From a virus: a DNA stretch of 64,000 nt. Of the stretch, positions 2,485 to 49,728 are shown piece after piece (position 1 is the stretch's first letter; each line of letters starts with the position of its first letter). The stretch is taken from UHGV virus genome UHGV-1372779; one strand, given 5' to 3'. Under the pieces are notes generated by a model. The model ran no database searches and was not told the origin of the DNA. It saw nothing but the letters and a program-made list of their open reading frames with translations. A program made the position numbers and the translations under genes.

Positions 2485-3173
2485 TGGCAAATTTAATAGG
2501 AATTGTAGGAGAATCTGGAAGTGGAAAGTCAACTAGTATTGGATTTCTAAATCCTACTGAGACAGTTGTAATAAGTGTGGCTAACAAGCCATTACCAATT
2601 AAAGGATTTCAAAAGAAATATACTCTGTTTGATGGCAAAACCAACCCAAAAGGAAATTTATTTAATAGCTCAAATGTAGAGCAAATTAGGAAATTTATGC
2701 AGTTTATTAGTGATCGAAGACCTGATATTAAGAATTTAATTATTGACGATGCGCAATATCTCATGTCCTTCGAGTTAATGAATAGAGCTGAGGAAAAATC
2801 TTATGACAAATTCACTCAAATAGCTGCTCACTTTTATTCTGTCTTAAAAGAAGCTATAAACTTAAGACCTGATTTAAACATTATTATAATGACTCACTCT
2901 GAAAATATTGGAGATGCAATAAATCCTCAATACAAGATGAAGACAATTGGAAAAATGCTTGACAGTGCTATTACTGTTGAAGGATTATTCACTTATGTAA
3001 TCTTTACAAGAAAGAGTCTTGATGATAATGATAAACCGGTATATGAGTTTATCACTAATTATGACGGAACTAATACAGCTAAAACTCCAGCTGGATGTTT
3101 TGAGTCACTTACTATGCCTAATAATCTACAAATGGTAGTTGAGGCAATTGATAAATATAATAACGAAGAATGA
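2484..3173 (+). CDS. RecA-fold ATPase, Sak4/AAA_24-like (recombination/replication accessory)
   Basis: Walker A IGIVGESGSGKST and Walker B LIIDDAQYL. About 230 aa, typical of phage Sak4-type ATPases. Adjacent to helicase and primase genes. Confidence 0.5.
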   Translation: MANLIGIVGESGSGKSTSIGFLNPTETVVISVANKPLPIKGFQKKYTLFDGKTNPKGNLFNSSNVEQIRKFMQFISDRRPDIKNLIIDDAQYLMSFELMNRAEEKSYDKFTQIAAHFYSVLKEAINLRPDLNIIIMTHSENIGDAINPQYKMKTIGKMLDSAITVEGLFTYVIFTRKSLDDNDKPVYEFITNYDGTNTAKTPAGCFESLTMPNNLQMVVEAIDKYNNEE

Positions 3174-3919
3174 TAAATATTTCATTTGATTTCGATCCAG
3201 TTAGTTATTCAGTATCTAATATATTAGTTACAGAAAAAGGCACATCTGGCCTTGATAAGATTGTGGAACAGATGAAGGAAGTTATTCCTTCACCTACTAA
3301 ATCTACAACTAAAACTACTGGAAGAAAGAAAAAAGAAAAGAATGAAGATATAATCAAACTTGAAGATAACAAACTTGTTCTAACTCAAAAATTAATTGAT
3401 TTATTAGAAGCAGAGCCTGGAGATAGGTTATGTATTAGATTTAAAGATTTTAACGGAGAGTATTTCCCTATTATAGCTAAGTCGGAAGTATTTGCTGATC
3501 CAGAAGCTGGAAATAAACTTACTAAGAGTTTAACAGTTTCTTATAGAGGCAAACAAAGGGAAGAATTAGTTATATATGGAGAGGAATTTACATTTGAAGA
3601 AACTTTTGAAGGATCTGGAATATGTAAATTAATAGGACAAAACACAATAACAGCAGATGATAAGGTATTTAAAGGTAATAAAGACCTTGATTCCTATGAT
3701 GATGAAGATAAAGAAAAGAAGAAATCTAATAAATCTCAGAAGAAAGAAGATGTAGTTGGATTAAATCCAGATACTAAATTCTCTTATACTCCAGTTTTAC
3801 CTAATAGTAAATCTAGAGTAGATTCTTCTGTTAATATTTTAGATTTTGATTTTAATAAAAAGTCAGATAGTAACATAGACAATCTTTTGAGAGAGATTGA
3901 AGGGGTTGAGGATTTATAA
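3170..3919 (+). CDS. hypothetical lysine-rich protein
   Basis: ORF track. ATGA overlap with upstream gene. K/E-rich tracts (KEKKKSNKSQKKED). Confidence 0.45.
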   Translation: MINISFDFDPVSYSVSNILVTEKGTSGLDKIVEQMKEVIPSPTKSTTKTTGRKKKEKNEDIIKLEDNKLVLTQKLIDLLEAEPGDRLCIRFKDFNGEYFPIIAKSEVFADPEAGNKLTKSLTVSYRGKQREELVIYGEEFTFEETFEGSGICKLIGQNTITADDKVFKGNKDLDSYDDEDKEKKKSNKSQKKEDVVGLNPDTKFSYTPVLPNSKSRVDSSVNILDFDFNKKSDSNIDNLLREIEGVEDL

Positions 3920-3944
3920 ATATTAAATTTAAATACTATATATT

Positions 3945-4778
3945 ATGAATATGAATTTTGGAAGTGATTTAGCTAATAAAGATGTAAAAGCAACAGCAGG
4001 TGAATCTAATTTTCTTAAAGGCGATGCTATTTATGATGTAAAATTAAAAGATGTAAGAGAGGAAGTTATTAAAGGTAAAGAAAAAGATGGCGCTCCTGGT
4101 CAGGAATATCATGTATTAGTTATGGAGTTTGCTGAGATAAATCCTGAAACTGGAACTATTGATGAAAATAGTAAAGTTTATGCTGATAAAACTTTCCCTA
4201 TTACAGAACAATCTGCAAAGAGAAATACCTTTAAGAGAGTAGTAGATGGTAAAGAAACTGAGATAGAATTACCATCTATTTATGAAACTACTATGGCTAA
4301 ATTTAAGCAATATATGAGCCAACTTTGCCCAGAGTATTATAATAGCTTACTTACTGGTAAAAATAGCTTATCTGGAATTAATAGCTGGGATGCATTTAAG
4401 AAAGTGATGATTACTTTGTTCTCTAAAGTAATTAAATCTGATAAAAATCCTTCTTGTAAACTTAAACTAGTTAAAAATAAACAAGGATTCGCTACTATTC
4501 CAAACTTTGTTGCATTAAATAGAGAAGGACAGTATTATGTTAATAATAACTTCCTTGGAAATATTGATCTATTGACTAAAGAGAAAAGAGAAATTGCATT
4601 CTCTGACTATGAAATGAGTCAAATTGAAAAGAGAAAGAAAGCAGCTAAAGAAGCTACTTCTACTACTCAATTAATGGGAATGTCTGCTCCTGCAGCATCT
4701 AATACAGCTCCTATTGCTGGAGGCTCTGAAAGTGTAGATCAAGTAAACTTTGATGATATTGATCTAAGCAGTCTTTAA
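3945..4778 (+). CDS. hypothetical protein; possible ssDNA-binding protein (weak)
   Basis: Acidic C-terminal tail (VNFDDIDLSSL) reminiscent of SSB tails. Position next to the Sak4-like ATPase. No OB-fold motif verified. Confidence 0.4.
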   Translation: MNMNFGSDLANKDVKATAGESNFLKGDAIYDVKLKDVREEVIKGKEKDGAPGQEYHVLVMEFAEINPETGTIDENSKVYADKTFPITEQSAKRNTFKRVVDGKETEIELPSIYETTMAKFKQYMSQLCPEYYNSLLTGKNSLSGINSWDAFKKVMITLFSKVIKSDKNPSCKLKLVKNKQGFATIPNFVALNREGQYYVNNNFLGNIDLLTKEKREIAFSDYEMSQIEKRKKAAKEATSTTQLMGMSAPAASNTAPIAGGSESVDQVNFDDIDLSSL

Positions 4779-6686: not shown

Positions 6687-7817
6687 ATGATCTCTGAAGA
6701 AGTATTAAATAAATTTGAAATAATACCAGACTATGATTCAGTTGAATGTAAGGAAATAGATGATGAAACTTACTTTAGCTCAGAATATAGAAATTATATA
6801 TCTAATTCTAAGTTAAAGTTAATCAATCCAGATGAAGGAGGATCTTTTGAAACATACTTGAAAGGTCTACAATCTGCTTCATCTACATCACTTTCAGTTG
6901 GAACTGCAGTTCATGAAGTTATTCTTCAAGAAGAGAGTTTTGAAATCTCTGATCAGTTAAAACCAACTGCAAAAGCTGGAATGATGATTGATAGAATCTT
7001 TTATTACCGAAATAAGAAAAATGAAAAAGGAGAATATTGTTACAAAATAGGTGAATCTATTATATTTGCATCGGAGGATGTTGGATATTATACTAATCAA
7101 TTAACTAAAAAGAGATTAAGAACTCTATTAGAAAGTGGTTGGGATTATTATAAATATTTAAAAAGATTACAGTCTTTTAAGCCTTCTAAAGAACAAATTG
7201 TATTAGATAAGACCACTAGACCAATTGTATTATCTTGTATAGAACAGTTAAGAAGGAATGAAGATGCAATGAATCTATTACGTCCTGATGCCTTCAACTT
7301 TATGGGATATGATATAATCAATAGAAATGAAGATGCAATATTTATTAATGTAACAGTTAAGTTTCCTAATAGTTTAACTGATCCAAATGCAGAGATAGTT
7401 TCTCAAGATTTAGCATTAAAGATCAAAATAGACAACTGGAGCATAGATTTAGATAACAAATATTTAACACTTAATGATTTAAAGACTACTGGAAAGGCTG
7501 TTTATATGTTCCCCGGAAGTATTAGAAATGAAACTGGAGAATTCTTAGAAGGATCATTCCAACACTATCATTACTATCGCCAGATGGGTATGTATATATG
7601 GGTTTTAAGGCAGTATGTAAAAAGAGAGTTTAATATAGATTTAAAGGAATTTACTACAAACCTAAATATGATTGTAGTATCAACAATTCCCAATTATTCT
7701 ACTTCCGTCTTTAGAGTAACTAATGAATGGGCAGAGAAAGGTTTTGAGGAATTTGCAAAACTCTTGAAATATGCAGCTTATGCTGAATATAATAGAGAGA
7801 AATTATTAAAAGAATAA
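6687..7817 (+). CDS. putative PD-(D/E)xK-family nuclease (RecB/YqaJ-like)
   Basis: IDLD...LNDLKTT (D...DxK arrangement), then QHYHYYRQ (QxxxY motif typical of RecB-family nucleases). Motif-level only. Confidence 0.35.
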   Translation: MISEEVLNKFEIIPDYDSVECKEIDDETYFSSEYRNYISNSKLKLINPDEGGSFETYLKGLQSASSTSLSVGTAVHEVILQEESFEISDQLKPTAKAGMMIDRIFYYRNKKNEKGEYCYKIGESIIFASEDVGYYTNQLTKKRLRTLLESGWDYYKYLKRLQSFKPSKEQIVLDKTTRPIVLSCIEQLRRNEDAMNLLRPDAFNFMGYDIINRNEDAIFINVTVKFPNSLTDPNAEIVSQDLALKIKIDNWSIDLDNKYLTLNDLKTTGKAVYMFPGSIRNETGEFLEGSFQHYHYYRQMGMYIWVLRQYVKREFNIDLKEFTTNLNMIVVSTIPNYSTSVFRVTNEWAEKGFEEFAKLLKYAAYAEYNREKLLKE

Positions 7818-25820: not shown

Positions 25821-26138
25821 ATGGGCAAATATTTTATACATTGTGACACCAATTGGTGTGGTGAACAAGAAACTTACAGAGTTATAGCAGATAGTGAAGA
25901 TCAAATATATGATTTGGCTGAACAATTAGCTTATGATAATTTTAGAGAAGGCGATCATATGGAAGAAATTATGGCAGATCTTGGATATTATTATGAAGAC
26001 GATCCAGAGGCTTATGAAGAGGCTTGGAATTGTATAGATGAAGCTCAGTATTATGATTATGCTATAGAAGAAGCTGATGAAGATGAGTGGGATGAATATG
26101 ATGATATAATATATAATCTTTCAAATGAAACTAATTAA
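25821..26138 (+). CDS. hyper-acidic small protein (about 37% D+E; DNA-mimic-like composition)
   Basis: Translation is dominated by D/E/Y (…EEADEDEWDEYDDIIY…). Confidence 0.45.
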   Translation: MGKYFIHCDTNWCGEQETYRVIADSEDQIYDLAEQLAYDNFREGDHMEEIMADLGYYYEDDPEAYEEAWNCIDEAQYYDYAIEEADEDEWDEYDDIIYNLSNETN

Positions 26139-27102
26139 GCCATCTTTTGAAATAATTGAACAACTTCCAGGAGAAGAGGGGATATATAAACAAATTGAAT
26201 TAGCTGGAAGAGTGTGTTGGAAATCTGAGAATAAGATAACAGAAGATTCTTACAAGAACTTCATTGAAATGCTTAAAAGTAAACAACATTTAAGTGTGTT
26301 GGAACATGGAACTGTTTATTTGAAATATGATATAATAGAACATAGATCCATGAACATGGCTAATAAGTACTATTTCAACAAGTATTCTAAAGCAGTTATT
26401 GGTCATGAACCTCTGCATGGTTATGAAACTCCAGAATATAAAGAGAGATTTAATGGTCATACATGTGCTTGTATTACTACTAATTATAGAGTATTAGTAG
26501 AAAATAATTGGCTTGATGATCTTAAATATTTATGTGAACCTACTGAGAATCATCAAAAAAGAATCACAGTTAGATTTATATTAGACAGAGCTATTGCAAA
26601 TGAGTTTGTAAGACACAGAGTATTTAGTTTTGCTCAAGAATCTACTCGTTATTGTAATTATAGCAAAGATAAGTTTGGTGGAGAATGTATCTTTATAATG
26701 CCTAGTTGGTTGCCTTATATTCCTGGAAATTGGGGGATTTCTGAAACAGAAGATTATTGGGGAAATTATAGTGGAACAATTATTACCTTGAGTGGCAAAA
26801 ATGTAGAGCATGACGTTTTTAAAGAAGATAGAGAACATTTTAAAGCGTATATTACAAGTCTAGAAAATTCTGAATATGCATATTTTAACCTTTTAAGCAA
26901 GGGATGGACGCCTCAACAGGCTAGAGTTGTGTTACCTAATAGTCTTAAAACTGAATTAGTAATGACAGGATTTGTGGATGATTGGAAACATTTCTTTGAA
27001 CTAAGGTGTGCATCATCTGCTCATCCACAAGCTAGGGAATTAGCGGAACCTTTATATTCTGAATTTGTTAAAAGAGGATACTTCAATGAAGAGAATTGTT
27101 AA
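26125..27102 (+). CDS. thyX: flavin-dependent thymidylate synthase ThyX
   Basis: ThyX signature FVRHRVFSFAQESTRY (RHRxxxxxxxSxR). Size 325 aa. Confidence 0.85.
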   Translation: MKLIKPSFEIIEQLPGEEGIYKQIELAGRVCWKSENKITEDSYKNFIEMLKSKQHLSVLEHGTVYLKYDIIEHRSMNMANKYYFNKYSKAVIGHEPLHGYETPEYKERFNGHTCACITTNYRVLVENNWLDDLKYLCEPTENHQKRITVRFILDRAIANEFVRHRVFSFAQESTRYCNYSKDKFGGECIFIMPSWLPYIPGNWGISETEDYWGNYSGTIITLSGKNVEHDVFKEDREHFKAYITSLENSEYAYFNLLSKGWTPQQARVVLPNSLKTELVMTGFVDDWKHFFELRCASSAHPQARELAEPLYSEFVKRGYFNEENC

Positions 27103-37900: not shown

Positions 37901-39100
37901 TAAAACTTCTCCTTTAGATTTAGATATATTAGGAATTAATATTAAATCTCCTGGAGATAAACTATACAATTGTAAAGGAGACTCAAGTTTTACAGGCTCT
38001 GAATAATTAAGATCATATTTATATTTAGAGACCTTTTCATTAAGTTCAGAAGATGTTTCAATATAGTTCTTCCAAATAAAATCAGATACCTTTTTATAAT
38101 CTGATGAAATTTCTTTAGGAATAATTTGGTCTATATATTCTGAATCATATTTTCCTACAAAAGGAGGAACTTCAAATCTATTATCTACACTACTCCAATA
38201 AACTTCTTTAGGATCAAATTCAGTTGTTTTATCACCTCCATAAACGTATACAGGCTCTTTGCCATCCCATACTTTTTCTGCGCTAACATTGTCTAAATTA
38301 ATTCTATCAGCAATTATTCCAATATTAGAATCAATGTTAAATAATCTAGTAGTAAACTCTCTTCCTGCTCCTTCATTTAAATCAAAATTGAGAGCTTCTC
38401 TATACTTAGGATCTGCCAAAATATAAGAAACAAATTCTGTAAGATTCAAATATCCTTTATCCCCTGTTACTTTATTAACAAAGTCCTTGATAACAGGATT
38501 TGATTCTTTATTTTTTCTAGCAGTCTCAAAAACATTATAAGCTATTTCACTTATTCTTGAGAAATTTTCATTACTTTTAGGGATATTATTAAAATATAAA
38601 TGCAACATTTCATGATATAAATCTCTTAGAGTGTCTTCATTAAATCCTTCTTTAGTATTTAAAATTATGAAGTTATTTTTTAATAAAGTTCCTCTAATTC
38701 CTGTAGTGCCGTCAATATTTAAATTTATATTTTCTCCCTCAAGTAATAATATTTGAACTTGATTATTAGGTACTCCTAGATTTTCTAATTTGTTTCTTAG
38801 ATTATTGAAATCTTCTTTTAATTCATCATTTTGAATATAATCTACTTGTTCAGAAATAGTTTGTAAATCAAAATTTCCCAATAAAGGTTCTCCATTAGAG
38901 TATTCAATACTAATACTCATAGGATTTAATTGAGATAATCTAGATTTAATATCTAATAAATCCTCCGTAGATAATCCAGAAAAAGCTTCTAGTATCATAC
39001 TAGGATTTAAATTAGTGTCTTCTGTAAAGTTGGTTTGGACAGGAATCTCATATTCCTGTCCACCTACTTTATACTTAATAAATATTTTACAATTACTCAC
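34913..39100 (-). CDS. giant virion-associated protein (1395 aa) with two HExxH zincin-like motifs
   Basis: ORF track. DLYHEMLHLYF (H163-H167, nt 38600-38614) and SSPLHELMHIIMG (H1226-H1230, nt 35411-35425). Confidence 0.55.
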   Translation of the reverse strand: MSNCKIFIKYKVGGQEYEIPVQTNFTEDTNLNPSMILEAFSGLSTEDLLDIKSRLSQLNPMSISIEYSNGEPLLGNFDLQTISEQVDYIQNDELKEDFNNLRNKLENLGVPNNQVQILLLEGENINLNIDGTTGIRGTLLKNNFIILNTKEGFNEDTLRDLYHEMLHLYFNNIPKSNENFSRISEIAYNVFETARKNKESNPVIKDFVNKVTGDKGYLNLTEFVSYILADPKYREALNFDLNEGAGREFTTRLFNIDSNIGIIADRINLDNVSAEKVWDGKEPVYVYGGDKTTEFDPKEVYWSSVDNRFEVPPFVGKYDSEYIDQIIPKEISSDYKKVSDFIWKNYIETSSELNEKVSKYKYDLNYSEPVKLESPLQLYSLSPGDLILIPNISKSKGEVLFGKFDDKYFSSKQYLPIRSIWKNDKGETLITVLKQFGSNGVSPVTISYTDLVNLLSEKNLDPVFRKFYGKLDREAIDIEIIKSVKDQFDEGLNSGDYDNQPLLRELGIATRTGKEFTYYNTGKGGFRLKTKEGSNNLINQELRRGDIVKVSTPIKKGDKWERFEYFAPVLRTFGTVVEVALKSAEGKYFSKLYKFNDVQEAIFNKQNHPELVRIHNEFTSDYNKYLESTKNRSLYQSVWFSLPGLKEDSESPRQLNGDFVGAADTRSVVDFRRSKVKQLKIGDSVAVQWFGTTNSGRPIISKHMVIGIDGDHIYFLNKNRAEEGVATSRVSMVDLKTIEPNVLFDQGINRPIPSLVALYYNNTEDVELVEHLNTQKSQINNAFELIDGKWVFNGDSNTATSFNDLYDIINTDESNIAEEAAKLQRGDIIKYEENGRQYVGIVSRADILNNIIEVPGYYRPDGSTDMFRKNISLDQIIYVGFAANPIYELGISGHSDIREYNSKRVSRLYDMNHSTYALSYDDALSKSNMFNKSTNWTQVTEVKYIAPKDSSLEFREKFRDSKEKGVEKGRAVIISDSISKLIKSGDYIDLTEEYIKQNKINSKDGKLYGLRKTIYSNGTQYNIQLPNATGFNYVNKVTQIDPIKIPEILDVQDVVKIQYDSNNRKKTTKYLRILSKTDKGIKLESEILGLDGKTYSNKWNINFNDLKSGKYKIVELYYPVNKSKTDRINNILSDKQFTPKESSYFIQTIDRFNQKKILNRIISNINNTYNNIINVIDDATIKDWIANKNPDITPYIATKLKQSSAFILGNKVYVNTDKASLSSPLHELMHIIMGVMKQTTPERYNLLIDKASELSGFTERYRKVMQNRVLSDAKEEAFVDAVAKSLQGIFSSDNFNINNLLQSNNFFNDYLNILSNGLDLNIAEVGNKSAEVLSKELSNMPLEKIVMEFNSLLAQSANPKYSLFNADNLNKAFLHRTINNIKSSLLNSGNLIEKC

Positions 39101-42100
39101 AGCGATATATTAATTTAATCTTATTTGTTCTTAATAAATTCATTACATTATTTACTAGATCTGTAACAGTTTTATTTCTGTTTACCGATTCAGCAAAGTT
39201 AGTATTTAAATTAGAATTAAACAAATAATAATTAGGATTCTTGTCTAAGACAATATCAGTGTACTTCTTTACTGGATACCCACCTTCGTTCATTTCAACC
39301 GTGACTTCTTGGATCTTATATGTAGATGTGTTTTTATCATATTTTTTCACATATTTATTTCCCATAGCCATTTCCTCAAAAGAACCTTTCACTGGAGCTA
39401 GTCTCATTTTTACATCATCCATATTTACATCATTGAGAGTAATCTTATCTCCTTGAAGATCATATTTGATATTTGGAATTGATGTATTATAATCTACTTC
39501 TCCTATATATTGGAAGAATCTACTTGCTAAACTATTTCTATTATATACTGATCCTTGTAGGATTTTTAATAAACTACCTTGTCCTTTTCTTCCTTTATTA
39601 ACTATTAAGTCATAAATAAGGAACAAATTAGATAATTTAATCCCATCAAATGTAATATTCTCAATAGCTCCAAATGCTGTAATTTGTTTATCAAATTCTA
39701 TATTATCTACAGTATTTAACATATTTACAGCAGATCTATAATGAGTATAAGGAGATCCATCCAGTTTGGATTTTTTATCAGTTAGAATAAGTTTATTCAA
39801 AAATTCATTTCTAGATAATACTGGAGTATTCACTCTTAATCCATTAGGAGAAATAGTATATCCATTTTTTAACATAGGAATTACTTTATTTTCCATATAA
39901 TATTTAAAAGAAGCCAATCCATCATCATCAGATAAGTTATATATGGTATCAGTAACAGCTTCAGTTAAAACTCCATTTATAAAATGAGAATCACCAGCTT
40001 TAACTTTAATTCCTATATTCTCATGATTTAAGAATTTCTTAATAATTAACTCATCTATATAATCTCTAATAGTACTAAACTGATTATCAGTTAATTTACC
40101 TATAGTACCATTGGACTTTTTCATTACTTCCGTTTCCAGTTGTCCTGTTATATCCATTAGTAAATTATATTTTATAGATGCCAATTTAAGATTATCTTCA
40201 TTTACTAAATAAGCTTTTAAGAAAGCATTGTAGTGAGGAAGTTTATCTATTAGATCAAATACATTAATTGCCCTCTTATAATTATTATAAAATTCAATTA
40301 CTGCATTTTTATATTCTGGGAGATTGAAAAATTTATTTAAGTCAAAATTAAAGTTGACTAAATTAGGATCTCCATTATTTGCATATTCTATAAGATTCTT
40401 AGTAACATTATATCTCTTTATAGCATCAGGATGATGATTTTCACTCTTTGTATCAAATCCAGCATATAATGTTGTAGCATCAGATAATGGATCAGATAAT
40501 AAATCATTAAATACTTTAGAGAAAGAATATCTATCAAATAATTTAGTTTTAGCACCTCCGTTTATACCTAATATTCTTCCTAATGAAGCTATTTCCTTAG
40601 CACTCTTAAATGCAGTAACAAATGATGAATAACTAGCATTGTCTTTATTTAACTTATCTCTAAGAGTTTTTAGATCTATAAGTTTACCCACATACCTCAA
40701 CAATCCCTTAGTAAAGTTATCAGATTCTTTATATAGGTAACTTTCACTTACCATTTCTCTAAATTCTTGAGCTATTTCATATTCATCTTGATTAGAATAT
40801 TCTTCAACAAATGTTCTGTTACTTTCCTCTAAGTCTTTTTTAATATTTAATAGCTCCTCTACAGGGATAGAATTTAAAATCTTACTAGGATTTTTTTCTA
40901 CTTTACCATCATTTCTTCTGATTTCTGAAACTTTTCCATCTGTTTGCAGTTTGCTTATATAATTTCTTAATGTTACTTTCCATTTATCATCTAAGAAATT
41001 ATTATAAGATAATCCATTATCAAGTTTTTTTAATATTGAATCAATACTCTCAGATTCATCATACATTCTATTTACATTAACAGCATTTTTTATGTCAGAT
41101 ACAGCATCACTTGTCATAAGATTTGCAATATCAGAGAATTCCAAACCATTAATGATTAGATATATATATGTTCCCATTAAATCTGGGTTGGCATTAATTT
41201 TATCAAGAATTAACTCTTTAGCATTATCTGTTGCGGCAGAAATGACGGCTGATATAACTAGAGATTTATCAGTTTGTATATACTTACTAGATACTGCATC
41301 TATATCATCAGCAGTTAAATCCCTTCCCTGCATTAGCTCAGCTCTATTTTCTTCTATAGCTTCATCTAATACTCTTCTTACATTAGGAGCATTATCAAGG
41401 TTTATATTAGCTAATGTATTTGCAAATACTCTAACTAATTTATTAACATCTTTGCCTTGATTATCTTTCATGCTCCTGTATATATTAAATATATTATTGA
41501 AATATATACTACTTGCTTTTAAATCTTCAACAGTAAGATTAGGCAATTTAGATAATCTTTGAGCTTCTTGATTAAAATATTGAGTTGCAGCTAAGAATAC
41601 TTTTTGTCCTACTGCACTAATACCAATACCTTCTTTTCCTGCCATATTAGCATAGAATAGATTATATTTAGTAGTAGGAGTAAATGTTGTCACTCTTTTA
41701 ATTTTCTCTCCCTCCTTAGACTTTTCTGCTGCTCTTTGAGGATCAGTCATAGCAATAGGAGAATAAGCTGCAATATGATTTTTCAGATTATTAGTAATCT
41801 GATATATAGTATTAAAGATAAAGTTCTTAGACCCTTGTAATAGTTCAGAATCTGAATTAGGTTGAGTATTATGGGATGATATATTTGACGAAATACGATC
41901 TATCCAATCTTCCTTCCCAGTTCCTTCATCATAATATAATTTAACATTATCTATTCCAGAATCATATATTCTATTTAATATCTTAACAGTAGCTTCAAAA
42001 GGAGTTCTTGAAGTTAATAATTCATTAGTTATATCAATAGAATCTACTCCCCTTTCCTTAGTAAATCCATAATTATTGGTTTCTGGATTAAAATTAGGAT

Positions 42101-42119
42101 AAGGAAGTTGTTTACTCAA
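39093..42119 (-). CDS. giant protein (1008 aa as tracked). No ATG start. Either the 3' exon of the intron-split upstream gene or a separate TTG-initiated gene.
   Basis: Track start codon is TTG. The frame stays open a further 38 codons upstream to TAA at 42237-42239 with no ATG. The first in-frame ATG is about 124 codons inside. Confidence 0.5.
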   Translation of the reverse strand: MSKQLPYPNFNPETNNYGFTKERGVDSIDITNELLTSRTPFEATVKILNRIYDSGIDNVKLYYDEGTGKEDWIDRISSNISSHNTQPNSDSELLQGSKNFIFNTIYQITNNLKNHIAAYSPIAMTDPQRAAEKSKEGEKIKRVTTFTPTTKYNLFYANMAGKEGIGISAVGQKVFLAATQYFNQEAQRLSKLPNLTVEDLKASSIYFNNIFNIYRSMKDNQGKDVNKLVRVFANTLANINLDNAPNVRRVLDEAIEENRAELMQGRDLTADDIDAVSSKYIQTDKSLVISAVISAATDNAKELILDKINANPDLMGTYIYLIINGLEFSDIANLMTSDAVSDIKNAVNVNRMYDESESIDSILKKLDNGLSYNNFLDDKWKVTLRNYISKLQTDGKVSEIRRNDGKVEKNPSKILNSIPVEELLNIKKDLEESNRTFVEEYSNQDEYEIAQEFREMVSESYLYKESDNFTKGLLRYVGKLIDLKTLRDKLNKDNASYSSFVTAFKSAKEIASLGRILGINGGAKTKLFDRYSFSKVFNDLLSDPLSDATTLYAGFDTKSENHHPDAIKRYNVTKNLIEYANNGDPNLVNFNFDLNKFFNLPEYKNAVIEFYNNYKRAINVFDLIDKLPHYNAFLKAYLVNEDNLKLASIKYNLLMDITGQLETEVMKKSNGTIGKLTDNQFSTIRDYIDELIIKKFLNHENIGIKVKAGDSHFINGVLTEAVTDTIYNLSDDDGLASFKYYMENKVIPMLKNGYTISPNGLRVNTPVLSRNEFLNKLILTDKKSKLDGSPYTHYRSAVNMLNTVDNIEFDKQITAFGAIENITFDGIKLSNLFLIYDLIVNKGRKGQGSLLKILQGSVYNRNSLASRFFQYIGEVDYNTSIPNIKYDLQGDKITLNDVNMDDVKMRLAPVKGSFEEMAMGNKYVKKYDKNTSTYKIQEVTVEMNEGGYPVKKYTDIVLDKNPNYYLFNSNLNTNFAESVNRNKTVTDLVNNVMNLLRTNKIKLIYRCE

Positions 42120-42233
42120 CTCAAAGTTGTTTATTCCCTCTTTAGATATATCATATCTAAATATTCTACTCCAAGGGGCATATACTCCAGAATCATTAAT
42201 TATAGGAGAAGTAATATATGCTTTGTCTATATC

Positions 42234-43314
42234 CGTTTAACCTTTATACTTTCACATAAAGACTGACTATATCATCACTGTTAATCTTCATTAACAGTGT
42301 CTTGCGCTTCGAGAACAGCTTTTTGCTGTGCAATAAACTCTTCTTTAGTAAAGTTATCTCTTATTTTATATAATAAAGATGGAACTTGTTCGATATATGG
42401 TTTTACAATTTCTATAAACTTTTTACAATCTTCTTCTGTGCTAGAGGCAATTGAAAAAGTGCCCTTTCCTTCTTTAAAAGGTCTAAATTTTATATTCCAG
42501 ACTTCTAAAAAGTATTGGATAATTATATTAATTGTAGGTTCATCAACACAAGTAGCTATTTTTATAGTATGTTGAATTGAACTTCTTTGTTTAGATGTAT
42601 TTACATTTATACACCCATCATCCATATACCAAATTGCAATCCCTAAAGGATTTAACCAATTTAGCAATCTTCTAGTAATAGTTTTCTTTGGAATATAAAT
42701 AGTTCTCCTTAATGCTTTAATAGTTGGATTTAAGGACATTTGCGAATATAAAACGTTCTTTCCTATATTGTAGCCGCATTTAGAAATATATTCCTTAATT
42801 CCATTATTTTTAATATTAAATTTGTTAAGAAGATCTACTTTCCATTGTAAAAACTCTCTCTGTGCTTCTGAATGAGAAAGTTTAAAAACGTAATTACTAG
42901 AAATTGTTCCATCTCCTAATAAAAGTCCTATTAATAGACTTTTTTGTTCTTTACTAAGTTTTTTAGTTATTTTTCGTGCCATATTACCTAATATTTTAAA
43001 TTAAACATTAGATAAAAGTCCCTACTCCCATAAAGGGATAGTCGATGAACTTTCATCCTTATAAATATAAAGATATAAGAAAATTTGTCAATTGACTAGT
43101 CTTATATCAAAATATTTATCTAGGATGCTTAGCTGCGGATTGTCCAATTTTAACCTTTTTTACTATACTGATAATAGTTAATTATCACCATTAAGTGTAT
43201 TTCTACCTTAATTTAGTAGGTTAAACTCTAAGGAGTTCCCCGCCAATTCACAAGATTTATTATAGTGACTACAATATTTAATTTGTCACCTAGCTAAACT
43301 TAAAAACTAGGTCA
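42234..43314 (-). mobile_element. group I self-splicing intron (td-like core) carrying a LAGLIDADG homing endonuclease. 3' boundary uncertain (alternative 42166).
   Basis: Minus-strand elements: P1 exon AGUGACUAU pairs with IGS GUAGUCACU with U.G at the splice site. CGGGGAACUCCUUAGAG and GACAAUCCGCAGCUAAGC resemble T4 td P4-P6. CGACUAUCCCUUUAUGGGAGUAGGGAC (43026-43052 plus-coordinates) nearly matches td P7/P3 GACUAUCCCUUUGGGGAGUAGGG. P7' GAUAUAGUC follows right after the HEG stop, then P9-like hairpin CUUUAUGUGAAAGUAUAAAG. Intron begins with UGA. Confidence 0.75.
42281..42982 (-). CDS. LAGLIDADG homing endonuclease (single-chain, two motifs), intron-encoded
   Basis: Motif 1 SLLIGLLLGDGTISS. 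Motif 2 IAIWYMDDGCINV about 100 aa later. Flanked by stops. Sits in the P8 region of the intron. Confidence 0.8.
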   Translation of the reverse strand: MARKITKKLSKEQKSLLIGLLLGDGTISSNYVFKLSHSEAQREFLQWKVDLLNKFNIKNNGIKEYISKCGYNIGKNVLYSQMSLNPTIKALRRTIYIPKKTITRRLLNWLNPLGIAIWYMDDGCINVNTSKQRSSIQHTIKIATCVDEPTINIIIQYFLEVWNIKFRPFKEGKGTFSIASSTEEDCKKFIEIVKPYIEQVPSLLYKIRDNFTKEEFIAQQKAVLEAQDTVNED

Positions 43315-46300
43315 ATAGTCACTTCCCTGTAACCAAATTTGGTAATGTGATACATAAGCCTCATTGCTTTCAGCATCAGAGAATCCTACAACTTTCATAG
43401 TCATAATTGATTGGAAAGCCTGAGCTGGAATACGATTAGCTGTAACATTTAAAGCCTCCTTAAATGAAGTAAACATCTTTTCAGCTTTTCTATTTATATT
43501 ATTTCTAATAGATTGGTTATATCTACCTTTAACCTCTCTAACTAATTCTTCATTTTCTAAATTACTTAAATCTCCAAAGGAATTTAATAACTTAGTATCA
43601 TAAGTTCCAAAAAAGGTTAATAATGTATTTATATTATCAGGATTAAAATTATAGAATATTCCATTATAGTTTTGGTCTTTAGATACATCTAATAATCTAG
43701 TCATATTATTAGGATCAACTACTATAACTTCTTGCGGAATCTGTGATTTGGGATCTTTGTAAAACTTCAATCCATCTATTTTATATAATTTTCTTCCTGC
43801 TTCATCCATTCTCCAGATTTCTCCATCAATATTATCTTTAATAATATCTATCTCCTCTAATTCAGAAATATAATCATTCTTTGAAGAAGAATCATTAATT
43901 ATAACTTGAGCATTTGCTCCAGCTGGATTTAATAATAATGCATCTATATTGTTGTTATTCTTAATTTCCTCCTTAGCTGCATTATAGTTAGCTATAAGCT
44001 TTTCTCTAAAAAATCTGCCATTGCTATTTATTACATCTGGAATAGAATCCCCAGGTCTAAGGAAGAATTTAGTTTGATATATCTTAGATAGAACTACCTC
44101 TGCAGGATTTATTATTATATTCTCTATTTTAACCATTAATTCTTCTGGAGTATATTGAGACAACATCGTTCTATCAATTCTTTCTCCAGTACTAATATTA
44201 TATAAATTATCTTGATTTGCAGATATAATATCATTAATCCTAGGATCTAAAGAAGATAATTCATAAAATCCCTCATCCAATCTAGATAAAGACTTATTAA
44301 TTCTATTTTGCACCTCTAGTATTTGTTCATCAGAGCCTTTATTAGCTCTTAATTCAAAGATTGTTTTAACTAGTGGATTATCATAAATACTATATGTGTA
44401 ATCAATTCCTGGTATTCTGAATGTTACATTCATAGGAGCTAATTCCTTCCTAGAATCTTTTATTATAGTAAGAGGTTTATCAGAATTTTTATATTTCTGA
44501 TATAACTCATAGGTATTAATTTCTTCATCTTGACCTGATTCTTCATTAAACACCACATCTCCGAATTTTAGATCAGATGGATTTATTGTTGGATTCAGAT
44601 TCGGCGCAGAATCTTTAAAATTATCTACTGCACTTATTCTATCTAATCCTTCCCCAGTAGCTCTATATCCAGCCTTAGCAGCTATTAATTCTAAATCAAA
44701 TTCTGAATAAGTTCCATTTAAATTAATAGGGTTTCCATTAATATCAACAAATCCTTCTGTTCCATCAAAATGATAAAATTTCATAGAACCATAAGAAGGT
44801 TTCATTACAGCTCCCATACCAGAGAATGTTCTCTTAATACTATCAGAATTCATTTTGGATGTAAGCATTGTGATAAATTGATTATGAATACTTCCTGCAC
44901 TGAATGGAGTTTTAAAATTAAAATCAGCTGTATTAAATTCTGTATTTAAATTATTCTCAAATTCTTGAGCTATTTCATTTAAATATCCATTTAATAGTGC
45001 ATCAGAATCAGATCCAGTAGATAATGCTCTTAATAGAGATTTTGTCAGAGTTTTATATAATTTAGTCTTATTACCTAAAGATATCTCATTATATGCCTCA
45101 ACAGCTCTTGCATCATTCTGAGCTTCTAAATACTCTTTTAGTGTTAAATCAACAATACTTCCTAAAGCATTATAGGCTCTAGAAGCTAATTTTATTGTAT
45201 TACCATTAGCAGCCAATGTAGATATAATCTGAGTAGATTCAGTTACTTCTGAATTATCTGCATGGTGATCAGCATTCATTTGAATTCCAAAATATTGAGA
45301 ACCTATAGTGTAATAATTCAAATCTGAATCATCATATCTACTTGTGGCTGGATTAGTATTTCTAGCTCCAACTTTAAGTGCAGAACCATTGATTAAATAG
45401 TGAATATCACTATGCTTCATTGGTTGATAGATATAATTTTGATCTAATATTACCTTTAGATTTCCATTACTATCAAAGAAGTCTGATTTATTTTCAGATA
45501 ATTTATTTTCTTCTACATCATATATGTTAGATTGGAATGAAGCGTTTTCATTACCTATTACTTGTCTAATATTATTTAAGTCTTCCTTAGTTTTATAGAA
45601 TCCAGTAGAATTTATAAATTTGGCTACAGCTTTAACTGATGCTTCACTAGGTTCTAAAAATCTATTAACTGGATTTTCAGAGTTTAAAGAGAAACTTCTT
45701 TGTCCTCCTAATGCTTCCCATAATTTAAAATTGGTATCAATTAACACATTAGGTCTTTCTTTTATAAAACTGTTAGGAGCCTGAGTTCCATCTCTATTTA
45801 CATGAACCTCTTTTATAGTATATCTATTATTTCCCTCTGGAATTATGTCTAATATTTGACGATACTCACCTTCATCAGTATTAAAATAATAAATACTTTC
45901 CTTAAGAACCTGATCTAAAGATCTTAAATTTCCATCAAAATCTTGCATTAAATTAAGAACCGGAATAGGCCAAGCTCTGTCAGTCATTTTCTTTAATAGC
46001 TTAATTTTTTCTGGAGAATGTCTCATTACATTATTATCAATTGCAAATGAAGCACATTTAAATAATGAAGCAGAACCATGAATAGGATTTATGTCATATC
46101 CAAAGTTCTTTCTATTTTGTCCAGCTGAACTTGAGAACATTGAATTATTCTCTAATTCATTTTGCCAACCAGTACATTCCATAGAACCATCTAGGGGCTT
46201 AACTACATCTTCTTCTCCAGAAGGATTAAATACTGGTGCCTCAATATCTTTAATAACAGCACACCTAATTTCAGATCCAGTTCCTTCTAAAGATCCTTGA

Positions 46301-49300
46301 TAATAGTTATGAATAGTACCCTGCATCATAACCATACGTTTATATTGAGCAATCAATCTATTAGCATGGTCATTTATACAATAATTCTCTTCATTACCTT
46401 CAAATTTAACTTTCTTTAGTTTAGAAGGATGAGCATAAGGCTCCCCTGCAGTAATCTGCATAAATTGATTAGATAAATACCCATCTAAAAAGAAGAATTT
46501 TTCAAATATAGGATTTAATTTACCATCTCTAATAATATCCATGTACCCATCTTTTCCTATCCAAGAATATGCTGTGTAATCATCTTTTAAGAAACTAAAC
46601 ACATCAGTATCTATCTTAATGTGCTTATCTAAGATGTCTTGTTTGAAGTTATCCATAGACCTCTTTATAAATCTTTCATAAGCCTTATCAGAAGTTGTAG
46701 ATACTTTATATATCTCACTCATATATTCTATGAAAGGGTTCATTCTCATTTTTCCATCTACTTTAGAGAAATGAGTTTCTTCTACCCATTCAAAAGTGGG
46801 ATCTTCATGAGCAATTTGTGAAGCCACAGCTTGTACTTCTTTGAATCTATTAGTTAGCATATCATTAATAGTATTCATGTTTTTTCTAACAGCTCTAGCT
46901 TTTCCTTCTTCTGATGTACTATTAAATATATTAGTAGCTATATTAACCCCTAATCTTTCTCCTATTCTTGAATAAGTATTAAATAAGTTACTTAATACAT
47001 TAGTATAATAGGTCTTTTGTCTTCTCCTATTCTCTTGCTCAATTTCAGGAGCGGTTACACTTGATAAACTTTTATCATTAATCTTTAAATCTTTAGATAT
47101 AGTAACTAATGACTGGTTTGCCTTGTCTGCATATACAGTAGGAAGAAAGTTTATATCATTTCCATCTATTAAATTCTTATAAAAGTCTAATATAACAGAT
47201 GAAGTAGTATACTCAGCTACATTAAATTTATTCTTTTGTATAACTCTTCCTGATTGAGTTACAAATTCAGTTTTTAATCTAACTCCTTTAATTAAGTCAG
47301 GAGAATTAAATAAAATATTTTCAGAAAAAATATTTTTAAATTGAGGATTTCTTTTTAATTCTCTATTCTGATATTGTTTTACTACTTCTATAAAATCAGG
47401 AATAGTTTTCATAAGATTCATCAACCCCACTGAAGGAACATTATCCCCATCTGAATTTTTATATGTACTAGGATTAGTATCCCCATTTATTATACTTAGA
47501 GAAGATACTATAGATTTAAATATAGCACTTCTTCCGGTCCCTGAAGAATTTCTACTTATTAATAATCTAGGACTTATTGTAGGATTAATAAATTGTTTAT
47601 TAAATGCTTCTCCACTTAATCCAGAATATCTTCTATCACTTTTAACTTCTCTAACAAATTCTTCTGGTGTGAATTTCTTTTTATTATCTACTTCCTTCTT
47701 ATGAATATCCTCTAATACCCTTAACGTGTCTAAAGTGCTGTATAAAAATGATAATAAATCTGATTTAAGATTATTTTCATCTTTATATTCATTAGTCATT
47801 CTAGAATACAATTGTCCAGCTGTGTTCTTAAATGGGAATCCAGTAGTAAGCTGTAATAATTCTAGCAATCTATATCCATCCATTACATCTGGATCTACTT
47901 TTTCTCCATTTATAATTTTACTTACCTGATCTGGAGTAGGCATTATTAAACTTTCTCTTACAGATTTATTATAATCTGTTCTAGTAACAGGATCTAACTT
48001 TTCTGCCTTCATATTTGGAGATAAGTTAATAGATCTGTTATTTAGTTTAATAGTTATAGTTTGGTCATTATTATATGTTAATCCGAACCCATCGTTTTGG
48101 TCTTTAATTATATTTAATAGTTCATTAGTAACTAAGCTATTTAAATCATTAGCTGAATTTACTTCATAATTTTTTAATGTAGACTCATATGAAATATTTG
48201 AAAATGTATCAATTTCATATTGTTTTGTATCTGGATTAAATTTATATGAAATATATTCAGAAGGCCCTTGTTTATTTATATAAGCCATTATATCCATAAA
48301 ATAGTTAAAATCTAAATCAGTCTGATTTTTAGCTATTATGTTATATAATGATGTTGCTTTAGGACTTGGGTCTATAATACTTTTATATATAGAATATAAT
48401 GTATCTTTTACTGAATTATCAAAGCTATCATTATATTTAAATTGTTTAAATGCGGATTGAGTTCCGAAGAATCTATTAAATAATTTAAGATATGCCTTAG
48501 TAGGATTTAAATGGGCTTCATTTAATTCTGGATATTTATTCTTAACTGAAGAATTATTGAATTTAGCTATGGCTGTGTTAAAATCATTAACTGTTAAATA
48601 ACTAAATCCATCCCAATTCCCATTAAGATCTAATTTCTTAATATTTTGAATTATAGCTTTAGTAACTGCTGCAGTTTCTCTTTCTATACTTGTTTCAAAA
48701 TTAGTTGTGGAGAAACTTTGTCTAATTATATTCTTTTTAAATGGAAGATATTTAGGTTCATACAGATTAGAAGTTACAATTCCAAACTTCTTAGGATCTA
48801 TATAAACTAACCCAGTAGTAATAATGTTAATTAAATTATCAAAATTTTCTAAAGCTATAGTAGAATTATAAGCATCAATAAACAATTTATCATTAGGAGA
48901 TAATTTAGTAAATGCTCTGTCATTTATTGAATTTAATCTAGAAGTAGGATTATTAGTTTCATAGTATTCATTTATTCTTCTAATAACTTCATTAAATCCT
49001 TCTAAATTAAAATCTCCATTTACATTATATAGATTTACTTTAGGCAGTTCCAAAAAGTTAGTGATATTATCTAATAAGTCTTGTTTGTATTGACCTATAT
49101 TTAAATTCATATCCTTAACAGTTTTGGCTATCTTTCCAGAATCAAAATCTAAAAAGGATGTTTTAAATATGTCCTTTCCAAAACTATTTTGGAATCTGCT
49201 TAATAATGCAGAATTAGTTTGAAATTTATTGCTTAAATCTAGAGTAGATTTAATATTACTAGAATAATCTACATCTTTTCTACTAGATTCTATTTCATTT

Positions 49301-49728
49301 ACTAATGTCTCAGTAGCTATTTTTTGAGCTTGATCAAAATCTTCCACACTTTCATCTGGAGAAACTAGTACTTGATAAGTTTCATTAGTTAATGCCGGGT
49401 TATTAGTTGCATCTGATTTGATAGATGCTTTAGGATCAGCAGAAGGAACTGTAGAAATATTTAATATATTTTTATCTAAAGAATCTTTAATCTTAGAATA
49501 ATCTCTCCCATTTGTTAGTGTTTTTTGGTTAAGATATTCTTTTATAGCTTCTACTAAATTTTGATCAGAGGGAATTCTGAAATCTTTTTGCAAAGATTCT
49601 TTAATATCTCTGAACTGATCAGTAGAAATACTATCACCCTGGAATATTACATCCCAAGGTGATAGATTTATTAAAAAGGTTTGAGATCTGGATGACTCAT
49701 TAAAAAAATCACATGCCATATTTAACAA
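43312..49728 (-). CDS. giant protein (2138 aa) with RNAP-beta-prime-like DFDGN motif; 5' exon ends at 43315
   Basis: MQDFDGNL at residues 1263-1267 (nt 45928-45942) resembles the NADFDGD Mg-binding loop of the multisubunit RNAP double-psi beta-barrel. Size is similar to the roughly 2180-aa virion RNAP remembered from crAss-like phage phi14:2. The TGA at 43312-43314 is the first codon of the intron. Confidence 0.55.
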   Translation of the reverse strand: MLNMACDFFNESSRSQTFLINLSPWDVIFQGDSISTDQFRDIKESLQKDFRIPSDQNLVEAIKEYLNQKTLTNGRDYSKIKDSLDKNILNISTVPSADPKASIKSDATNNPALTNETYQVLVSPDESVEDFDQAQKIATETLVNEIESSRKDVDYSSNIKSTLDLSNKFQTNSALLSRFQNSFGKDIFKTSFLDFDSGKIAKTVKDMNLNIGQYKQDLLDNITNFLELPKVNLYNVNGDFNLEGFNEVIRRINEYYETNNPTSRLNSINDRAFTKLSPNDKLFIDAYNSTIALENFDNLINIITTGLVYIDPKKFGIVTSNLYEPKYLPFKKNIIRQSFSTTNFETSIERETAAVTKAIIQNIKKLDLNGNWDGFSYLTVNDFNTAIAKFNNSSVKNKYPELNEAHLNPTKAYLKLFNRFFGTQSAFKQFKYNDSFDNSVKDTLYSIYKSIIDPSPKATSLYNIIAKNQTDLDFNYFMDIMAYINKQGPSEYISYKFNPDTKQYEIDTFSNISYESTLKNYEVNSANDLNSLVTNELLNIIKDQNDGFGLTYNNDQTITIKLNNRSINLSPNMKAEKLDPVTRTDYNKSVRESLIMPTPDQVSKIINGEKVDPDVMDGYRLLELLQLTTGFPFKNTAGQLYSRMTNEYKDENNLKSDLLSFLYSTLDTLRVLEDIHKKEVDNKKKFTPEEFVREVKSDRRYSGLSGEAFNKQFINPTISPRLLISRNSSGTGRSAIFKSIVSSLSIINGDTNPSTYKNSDGDNVPSVGLMNLMKTIPDFIEVVKQYQNRELKRNPQFKNIFSENILFNSPDLIKGVRLKTEFVTQSGRVIQKNKFNVAEYTTSSVILDFYKNLIDGNDINFLPTVYADKANQSLVTISKDLKINDKSLSSVTAPEIEQENRRRQKTYYTNVLSNLFNTYSRIGERLGVNIATNIFNSTSEEGKARAVRKNMNTINDMLTNRFKEVQAVASQIAHEDPTFEWVEETHFSKVDGKMRMNPFIEYMSEIYKVSTTSDKAYERFIKRSMDNFKQDILDKHIKIDTDVFSFLKDDYTAYSWIGKDGYMDIIRDGKLNPIFEKFFFLDGYLSNQFMQITAGEPYAHPSKLKKVKFEGNEENYCINDHANRLIAQYKRMVMMQGTIHNYYQGSLEGTGSEIRCAVIKDIEAPVFNPSGEEDVVKPLDGSMECTGWQNELENNSMFSSSAGQNRKNFGYDINPIHGSASLFKCASFAIDNNVMRHSPEKIKLLKKMTDRAWPIPVLNLMQDFDGNLRSLDQVLKESIYYFNTDEGEYRQILDIIPEGNNRYTIKEVHVNRDGTQAPNSFIKERPNVLIDTNFKLWEALGGQRSFSLNSENPVNRFLEPSEASVKAVAKFINSTGFYKTKEDLNNIRQVIGNENASFQSNIYDVEENKLSENKSDFFDSNGNLKVILDQNYIYQPMKHSDIHYLINGSALKVGARNTNPATSRYDDSDLNYYTIGSQYFGIQMNADHHADNSEVTESTQIISTLAANGNTIKLASRAYNALGSIVDLTLKEYLEAQNDARAVEAYNEISLGNKTKLYKTLTKSLLRALSTGSDSDALLNGYLNEIAQEFENNLNTEFNTADFNFKTPFSAGSIHNQFITMLTSKMNSDSIKRTFSGMGAVMKPSYGSMKFYHFDGTEGFVDINGNPINLNGTYSEFDLELIAAKAGYRATGEGLDRISAVDNFKDSAPNLNPTINPSDLKFGDVVFNEESGQDEEINTYELYQKYKNSDKPLTIIKDSRKELAPMNVTFRIPGIDYTYSIYDNPLVKTIFELRANKGSDEQILEVQNRINKSLSRLDEGFYELSSLDPRINDIISANQDNLYNISTGERIDRTMLSQYTPEELMVKIENIIINPAEVVLSKIYQTKFFLRPGDSIPDVINSNGRFFREKLIANYNAAKEEIKNNNNIDALLLNPAGANAQVIINDSSSKNDYISELEEIDIIKDNIDGEIWRMDEAGRKLYKIDGLKFYKDPKSQIPQEVIVVDPNNMTRLLDVSKDQNYNGIFYNFNPDNINTLLTFFGTYDTKLLNSFGDLSNLENEELVREVKGRYNQSIRNNINRKAEKMFTSFKEALNVTANRIPAQAFQSIMTMKVVGFSDAESNEAYVSHYQIWLQGSDY

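Follow-up and report, generated by a model that had tools for sequence, protein, structure and literature searches.

The window analysed here is a 64,000-nt stretch of the virus genome UHGV-1372779, and on its minus strand two giant open reading frames (ORFs) of 2138 and 1008 residues follow one another, listed at 43312-49728 and 39093-42119. A first-pass annotation had proposed that the span between them, 42120-43320, holds a td-like group I intron with a LAGLIDADG homing endonuclease gene, and that the two ORFs may be spliced together. We found that the intron does lie within this span, but that the intron proper occupies 42234-43314 (minus strand), 42120-42233 being already part of the second exon. 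It is very highly probable that this 1,081-nt, subgroup-IA-like element is a mobile IA-type group I intron with a LAGLIDADG gene, placed inside the virion RNA polymerase gene of a crAss-like phage; the assignment draws on covariation, nhmmer matches, partial matches to Rfam model RF00028, relatives with an intron at the same site, and intron-less homologues. The intron opens with UGACC and closes with UUAAACG, the last base of which is the omega-G at 42234.

The interrupted polymerase gene and its splice junctions

Exon 1 of the virion-type RNA polymerase gene (43315-49719, minus strand) ends ...LQGSDY and carries the first catalytic aspartate of a D-x-D-x-D motif, and exon 2 (39093-42233, minus strand) starts GAU AUA GAC AAA (DIDK...) and carries the second and third. 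The ORF list begins exon 1 at a TTG (49728) overlapping the last bases of the 2962-aa ORF upstream; the more likely start is the first ATG (49719), 2 nt past the stop of that ORF, which gives a spliced protein of 3,181 aa. From the listed TTG the product would have 3,184 aa, in agreement with the length of about 3184 aa suggested at first pass. Exon 2 appears in the list only as 39093-42119 with a spurious TTG start, and its frame stays open for 38 codons (42233-42120) upstream of that TTG. Under the standard code the window polymerase gene has no in-frame stops. We noted that the orthologous exons of two relatives (locus L004 at ~2020-2046 and L007 at ~1300-1338) have in-frame TAG where other relatives have glutamine (HF-stop-TYL-stop-GSDY), and therefore these two use a TAG-reassigned code.

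At the 5' junction the 2138-aa ORF ends ...CAG GGA AGU GAC UAU followed by UGA (43314-43312), and the 5' splice site is after 43315, where the first-pass annotation had put it. For the 3' junction that annotation had left two candidates, one after UAAACG at 42234 (site a) and one after GGAGUAG at 42166 (site b). Site a is the correct one: it combines the omega-G at 42234 with a 5-bp P10 (GAUAU with AUAUU), and ligation there is in frame and restores QGSDYDIDKAYI, continuous in intron-less homologues across ...LQGSDY/DIDKAYI... (a slash within a sequence marks the junction). The expected ligated-exon junction would read AGUGACUAU/GAUAUAGAC. With a 500-aa protein query spanning junction a we found homologues (P0004 and P0006-P0012) that run unbroken through LQGSDYDIDKAYI or QGSDYDIDKAYI, and other proteins that end exactly at ...QGSDY or begin at DIDK or DYD. 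An exhaustive profile search gave 1,249 relatives; among 172 of these that were retrieved, 133 are continuous across the motif, 18 end there and 17 start at or shortly after it. Among the IMG/VR loci, of which we compared 80 of 262 relatives, 65 are uninterrupted. The two ORFs are thus not always separate in homologues, and the alignment to intron-less homologues that had been recommended at first pass restores a conserved sequence at site a.

The closest relative, L009, is intron-less and has 74% amino acid identity; all 20 of 20 residues around the site are identical, and the 11 of 60 bases that differ there are all without protein change (the intron-less site sequence in L009 is TGGTTGCAAGGTAGCGATTATGACATAGATAAGGCATA). 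These synonymous differences cluster beside the insertion site, which is occupied in L010 and empty in L009. The intron-bearing alleles (the window, L010 and L001) share GGGAAGUGAYUAU/GAUAU, and the empty L009 has AGGUAGCGAUUAU/GACAU; shared exon flanks of this kind fit either co-conversion or selection for P1 and P10. All relatives with an intron at the same site keep AAAYG/GAUAU at 7-8 nt after P9. The spliced protein is collinear at both ends with the single-ORF homologues P0045, P0034 and P0037, in single segments across the junction, with exon 2 collinear to the C-terminus in P0034 and P0037, and its length lies near that of uninterrupted full-length homologues (median 3,299 aa, range 2,791-4,135). 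We conclude that the 2138-aa and 1008-aa ORFs represent the two exons of a single gene, for a ~3,181-aa protein.

The first-pass suggestion that the giant gene might be RNA polymerase-like was borne out by a pairwise search against phi14:2 gp66, a "catalytic RNA polymerase subunit" with a single DxDxD motif (GSDFDIDKMY at 1359-1368): the spliced GSDYDIDKAY aligns with this string within a match of 165 residues (E 2e-7; RIPAQ... with RIPNQ... onward). Every aspartate of gp66 1361-DFDID-1365 is required for RNA synthesis (bioRxiv 10.1101/2020.03.07.982082). Judged by this alignment, the intron parts the first catalytic aspartate from the other two, and since the split motif aligns with the gp66 active site, splicing should be obligatory for activity. 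Sequence searches of the PDB returned nothing with the junction region alone or with a nine-sequence profile, and a tblastn search of the junction protein against 50,697 phage records returned two unannotated records only. We take the host gene to encode a probable gp66-type single-chain enzyme with a presumed two-barrel fold. It shares with gp66 the RIPxQ...GSD(F/Y)DIDK(M/A)Y region and a position as a giant gene within a block of giant virion-protein genes; however, gp66 has 2,180 aa and is uninterrupted, whereas the window protein has ~3,181 aa, is interrupted by an intron and is very divergent elsewhere.

Folding of the intron RNA and its relationship to other introns

We built the structure by hand from the window sequence, with P1, P3-P9, P5a-c, P7.1, P7.2, P10 and the P3/P7 pseudoknot; P2 is absent. 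Covariation was assessed in A4, an alignment of nine related introns from which the ORF and the P6 extension had been taken out. In A4 the 79 proposed pairs are paired in 94.7% of 694 cells, compared with 38-46% in controls that shift the 3' partners by 1-3 columns, and compensatory (both-side) changes occur in 37 of the 79 pairs, compared with 7-11 in these controls; none of 500 shuffles reached any observed measure. The core strings quoted at first pass are present on the minus strand (CGGGGAACUCCUUAGAG at about 43242-43226, GACAAUCCGCAGCUAAGC at about 43144-43127 and CGACUAUCCCUUUAUGGGAGUAGGGAC at 43044-43018), as are GAUAUAGUC at 42273-42265 and the hairpin that follows it at 42242-42261, and the Q (AAUCCGCAGC), R (GUUCAUCGACUA) and S (GAUAUAGUC) elements are all found.

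The last nine exon bases, AGUGACUAU (43323-43315), form the 5' strand of P1 and pair in 9 bp with GUAGUCACU (43272-43264), the 3' strand, with the splice-site U at 43315 in a U.G pair and the TGA next to it, as had been described at first pass. GUAGUCACU belongs to the internal guide sequence (43264-43277, minus strand), whose remaining bases, AUAUU (43277-43273), are the 5' strand of P10 and pair with the first five bases of exon 2, GAUAU (42233-42229). P1 has two positions changed on both sides and is paired in 88% of cells, though one aligned sequence has a different insertion site; P10 is 89-97% paired. P1 also covaries with the exon: GAC-UAU with GUAGUC becomes GAU-UAU with GUAAUC in L001 and L007, and GAC-UUU with GAAGUC in L015 and L024. 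Within the P1 loop a hairpin extension (43288-43312, minus strand; ACCUAG...CUAGGU) is a sequence reading outside the formal count; L001 has a different sequence there, which is likewise self-complementary.

In the core, all on the minus strand, the 5' strand of P3 (43249-43255) pairs with CGCAAGA (42300-42306), with compensatory change in 5 of 7 pairs and 100% paired. P4 (43239-43244 with 43135-43139, one base bulged) is invariant and 100% paired, and P5 (43232-43234 with 43143-43145) is also 100% paired. Compensatory change affects 6 of 7 pairs in P5a (43219-43225 with 43149-43155) and 6 of 6 in P5b (43190-43212), both 100% paired, and 4 of 7 in P5c (43169-43187), which is 73% paired. P6 (43054-43127) has the closing stem CAUCCU with AGGAUG, paired in 97.8% of cells with compensatory change in 3 of 6 pairs; the window copy bears a ~50-nt extension here, compared with none in its compact ORF-less relatives. 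P7 joins GACUAU (43038-43043), in the conserved R element GUUCAUCGACUA, to AUAGUC (42265-42270), in the S element, and is invariant and 98% paired. That P4 and P7 show no variation in A4 is as expected for a catalytic core, and the P3-P7 pairing, named at first pass as a point on which the proposal would turn, is conserved. P7.1 (43027-43037, CCCUUUAUGGG; CCC-UUUAU-GGG) was read by eye only. P7.2 pairs GGGA (43019-43022) with UCUC (42311-42314), with compensatory change in 3 of 4 pairs; its variants in relatives are GGAA with UUCC, GGGC with GCCC, and GGACU with AGUCC, it covaries in L001, L004 and L006, and it is a plain hairpin in the ORF-less introns. P8 (42276-42299) and P9 (42242-42261, with a GAAA loop) show compensatory change in 2 of 6 and 4 of 8 pairs, respectively. 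The presence of P7.1 and P7.2 places the intron in subgroup IA. None of the core helices is disrupted in the window copy, and their retention by compensatory change across lineages indicates ongoing selection for folding.

The intron is also homologous to introns that Rfam recognizes. ORF-less introns at the same site in orthologous genes pass the full RF00028 (Intron_gpI) model, for which the gathering score is 50 bits (L015, 56.6 bits; second intron of L017, 63.6 bits), and introns at neighbouring sites pass it too (first intron of L017, 64.8 bits; L008, 77.3 bits). Over aligned positions the window intron has 73-76% identity to the same-site ORF-less copies and 61% to L008. Profile hidden Markov models (nhmmer) built solely from Rfam-passing ORF-less introns, namely the same-site copies and the neighbouring-site L008, matched the window in three places only, 43260-43117 (E 3.5e-24), 43059-43037 (E 0.04) and 42312-42240 (E 2.7e-11); a motif scan together with nhmmer found no second intron of the family in the window. 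Further afield, the 5' core (about 43121-43258) shares ~73% identity with the spacer splitting the DNA polymerase gene of cr271_1, with the region beside the split endolysin gene of Twort-like Staphylococcus phages, and with Vibrio phages. There was no blastn-level similarity to T4, and because of this we dropped the "td-like" label of the first-pass annotation: the DNA relatives are introns of crAss-like, Twort-like Staphylococcus and Vibrio phages.

Several points weigh against this reading of the locus. A search at Rfam gathering thresholds gave no RF00028 match anywhere in the 64 kb, and a focused search of the window with this model found only two collinear fragments, of 27 bits (42243-42360, spanning P8, P7' and P9) and 17.4 bits (43025-43254), so that the covariance-model check suggested at first pass falls short of the gathering score for the window copy, although its same-site ORF-less relatives reach 56.6-63.6 bits. 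The model apparently misses the window copy because a 702-nt ORF and the enlarged P6 split the intron; the Rfam search of 28 kb of relatives (E<=0.01) missed the cr271_1 and Staphylococcus introns as well, and RF00028 is insensitive to such introns in large search spaces. Furthermore, A4 was an edited alignment whose nine sequences represent about five or six lineages, and its structure was derived from the window; this makes the proportion of paired cells somewhat too high, while the counts of compensatory changes are unaffected. Splicing itself is a prediction from the sequence.

The endonuclease gene and competing explanations

The 233-aa double-motif LAGLIDADG ORF reported at first pass is present at 42281-42982 (minus strand) and encodes a single-chain protein of the I-SceI type. 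It matches Pfam LAGLIDADG_2 (PF03161) at 92.2 bits (cut-off 25; E 4.5e-26) and PHROG 11023, a LAGLIDADG homing endonuclease, and is 80% identical to the copy in L001. The closest solved structure is I-SceI (PDB match, E 5e-4), aligned nearly end to end over residues 12-217. Its two motifs are LLIGLLLGDGTI (...LLLGDG, residues ~20-25) and LGIAIWYMDDGCI (...WYMDDG, residues ~117-122), and the gene is apparently intact. As described at first pass, the ORF comes after the 5' strand of P7, but it sits in the terminal loop of P7.2, between P7 and the 3' strand of P3, rather than simply between the two strands of P7: P7.2 (43019-43022 with 42311-42314) closes the loop that holds it, and the last ~11 codons and the stop overlap P7.2', P3' and P8. 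We considered whether the element might be an intein, and ruled this out because the endonuclease ORF is out of frame and has stop codons on both sides.

Homologues of this endonuclease occur in only 6 of the 50,697 phage records, comprising five distinct genomes, of which four are faecal and two of these are classified as Crassvirales. This rarity agrees with the prevailing view of phage homing endonucleases, most of which are of the HNH, GIY-YIG or EDxHD kinds (PMC3943268), and thus the first-pass remark that LAGLIDADG enzymes are uncommon in phage introns stands; however, they had already been reported in the transcription blocks of crAss-like phages (PMC7886860, Fig. 3 legend).

From the anatomy of the locus and the established biology of group I introns and homing endonucleases, the following course of events may be proposed. 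The transcript would fold so that the exon end AGUGACUAU pairs with the guide GUAGUCACU as P1, with the U.G pair at the junction, and an external guanosine would attack after U43315. The first bases of exon 2, GAUAU, would then be aligned on AUAUU as P10, and the freed 3'-OH would attack after omega-G42234, ligating ...LQGSDY to DIDKAYI... and restoring the predicted Mg-binding D-Y-D-I-D motif in a single ~3,181-aa protein. If the transcript stayed unspliced, translation would end at the UGA with which the intron begins, and only one of the three essential aspartates would be present in the product. The encoded enzyme, if it acts like characterised homing endonucleases, would cut this highly conserved site in intron-less alleles when phages co-infect a cell, and recombinational repair would then copy the intron in. 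Occupied and empty sites are patchily distributed among close relatives.

We weighed three other accounts of the locus. With site b, after GGAGUAG at 42166, the spliced reading frame would end ...SDY-N-I-stop, and the 1008-aa ORF would stand as a gene of its own with a TTG start. Both the site, preceded by a G, and the 9-bp pairing of AAUAUUUAG (42165-42157) with UUAAAUAUU just 5' of the guide exist as claimed at first pass, but we rejected this junction, which is extremely improbable: it would put inside the intron DIDKAYITSPIINDSGVYAPWS, a conserved stretch that contains two essential catalytic aspartates and directly adjoins QGSDY in intron-less homologues. The AT-rich window has 30 copies of the 9-mer, so finding one nearby is unremarkable, and site a likewise has a P10, of 5 bp, and the flank described above that all same-site relatives keep. 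It is also very unlikely that the endonuclease gene stands free in a genuine spacer between the genes of two separately translated polymerase subunits, with the intron-like sequence as a decayed, non-splicing remnant. The missing Rfam call at gathering score would suit such a remnant, public gene calls routinely give the two halves as separate proteins, and cellular RNA polymerases do split their barrels between subunits; yet the break falls inside a five-residue Mg-binding motif rather than between domains, exon 2 lacks a start codon where it meets the intron, the core helices are all intact and kept by compensatory changes across lineages, and P1 and P10 covary with both synonymous and non-synonymous exon changes.

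The last account accepts a real intron and supposes that this copy is impaired in splicing or depends on protein, either because the LAGLIDADG protein acts as a maturase or because the genome is defective; to this we assign a small but appreciable likelihood. LAGLIDADG proteins can be maturases, and an "endonuclease maturase" is the label used in Fig. 3 of Yutin et al. (PMC7886860). Because the 3' end of the ORF overlaps P7.2', P3' and P8, translation and folding would compete, and the larger P6 together with the inserted ORF may delay folding. Speaking for a working intron instead, no core helix of the window copy is disrupted, and in the close relatives L001, L004 and L006 the same architecture is retained through compensatory changes, as would be expected of a functional intron.

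Genome context, related introns and significance

The setting of the intron agrees with its assignment to a crAss-like polymerase gene. The window has a G+C content of ~29%, and a plus-strand replication block (DnaB, a PDDEXK nuclease, a RecD-like helicase, an ATP-dependent ligase, dUTPase and Thy1) stands opposite a minus-strand block of giant ORFs; two facing blocks are the layout described for crAss-like phages (PMC7886860), and we counted this context in favour of the assignment. Five other giant minus-strand ORFs (1483, 1395, 2962, 630 and 1130 aa; window 30458-63902) are tightly abutted and presumably encode further proteins of the crAss-like transcription block, either virion components or proteins that are ejected. 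Pfam and PHROGs scans of the giant ORFs identified no families (of the five abutting ORFs, those of 1483, 1395 and 2962 aa were scanned and had no PHROG match at all), and a Pfam scan of nine small window ORFs found no further endonucleases. The Thy1 (ThyX) match, in a 325-aa ORF at 26125-27102, covers profile positions 59-187 only, in two stretches starting at residue 147; the N-terminal ~145 residues have no match and could be an insertion or a fusion.

Gathering related introns from orthologous polymerase genes, we saw at least five insertion positions within eight active-site codons across relatives. These are CT/C of the leucine codon (the L017 type), GS/DYD (L008 and L011-L014), GSD/FDID (cr131_1), GSDY/DID (the window and ten others) and GSDFD/VDK (cr116_1), the junctions of cr131_1 and cr116_1 having been read by eye only. 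L017 (2400-3000; IMG/VR UViG_3300045988_066423) carries two complete tandem group I introns, scoring 64.8 and 63.6 bits against RF00028, the first inside the leucine codon and the second at the DY/DID site of the window; they are parted by the 16-nt micro-exon CCAAGGATCGGACTAT, which encodes (L)QGSDY. L018, L019, L022 and L023 have tandem introns of the same kind. In L008 (1558-1918) a related intron with its own guide sequence, GCUACCC, lies 6 nt upstream of the site used in the window (QGS/DYDVDK), and a second group I intron (2939-3267, 54.7 bits) is found about 335 codons further down the polymerase gene; the L008-site intron of L011-L014 carries an ORF near its 5' end.

The closest intron-bearing relative is L010 (1258-3000; also L020 and L021), with an exon 1 that is 90% identical and an intron of 1.74 kb at the site used in the window. 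In this intron the LAGLIDADG ORF is a truncated one of 152 aa, and just after P4 lies a second ORF of 207 aa, which has a zf-FCS zinc finger and matches DUF5889 weakly; the arrangement looks like endonuclease decay and replacement within one intron. Two published genomes classified as Crassvirales, cr116_1 (L091, MT774389; ~6860-7720) and cr131_1 (L092, NC_055902; ~6900-7750), have a 47-49% identical LAGLIDADG ORF between two giant "hypothetical protein" genes. By a reading of the flanks, exon 1 ends GSDFD and exon 2 begins VDKEY in cr116_1, and exon 1 ends GSD and exon 2 begins FDIDHLY in cr131_1; the R and S core elements are visible in both, and these unannotated introns occupy two further positions in the same motif. 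Whether the L-Q-G-S-D-(Y/F)-D-(I/V)-D codons are a multi-entry hot spot, at which related introns have independently colonised at least five phosphodiester positions in at least three Crassvirales lineages, is in our judgement evenly balanced. Many of the introns at these positions have no ORF and are therefore invisible to protein-domain screens.

An intron of this kind was already known in outline for crAss-like phages, since Yutin et al. (2021; Nat Commun 12:1044, PMC7886860) described a high density of group I introns in the Delta and Zeta groups and showed, in their Fig. 3, a LAGLIDADG "intron-encoded endonuclease maturase" within the transcription block, in the same phage assemblage and gene block and with the same kind of endonuclease. 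They also noted disruptions of the DxDxD motif and ascribed these, for the Zeta group, in part to "unknown expression mechanisms", an account that a 2023 review repeats. Their introns were detected by protein domains, and in the text available to us neither an RNA structure nor splice junctions are given for the polymerase gene. Added here are a junction resolved to the nucleotide, the structure, and the multiple insertion positions in relatives; the DY/DID site differs from those of cr116_1 (DFD/VD) and cr131_1 (D/FDID).

The intron resembles the IA2 introns of the endolysin gene of Twort-like and K-like Staphylococcus phages and of T4 td, nrdB and sunY, which interrupt essential phage protein genes, have P7.1 and P7.2 extensions and loop an endonuclease ORF out of the core; by this likeness the window copy would be self-splicing. 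Those introns are in other host genes and another phage order, and carry HNH or GIY-YIG enzymes rather than LAGLIDADG ones (PMC3943268). The endonuclease in turn resembles I-SceI, the LAGLIDADG_2 archetype encoded by the omega intron of yeast mitochondrial large-subunit rRNA, in being a single-chain, two-motif protein of ~235 aa encoded by a group I intron, but the two are only distantly similar, the gene interrupted here is a protein-coding one of a bacteriophage and not organellar rDNA, and the activity and target site of the window enzyme are predicted ones.

For annotation, the result turns two giant "hypothetical" ORFs into one ~3,181-aa polymerase gene, and likewise in cr116_1 and cr131_1; about one-fifth of the related database proteins examined (35 of 172) break at the motif. 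The endonuclease points to a set of I-SceI-like LAGLIDADG enzymes in phages, with natural targets that are readable from intron-less alleles; they are candidate specific nucleases. The intron offers a nucleotide-level explanation for at least some of the previously unexplained DxDxD disruptions, and if the hot spot is real, group I splicing would explain much of what Yutin et al. describe as "stop codons and frameshifts" in DxDxD that call for unknown expression mechanisms. The locus is an example of homing elements targeting the most conserved, least mutable DNA: an enzyme packaged into every virion would depend on RNA splicing across its own active-site codons, and, should the hot spot hold, splicing could gate production of the virion polymerase.

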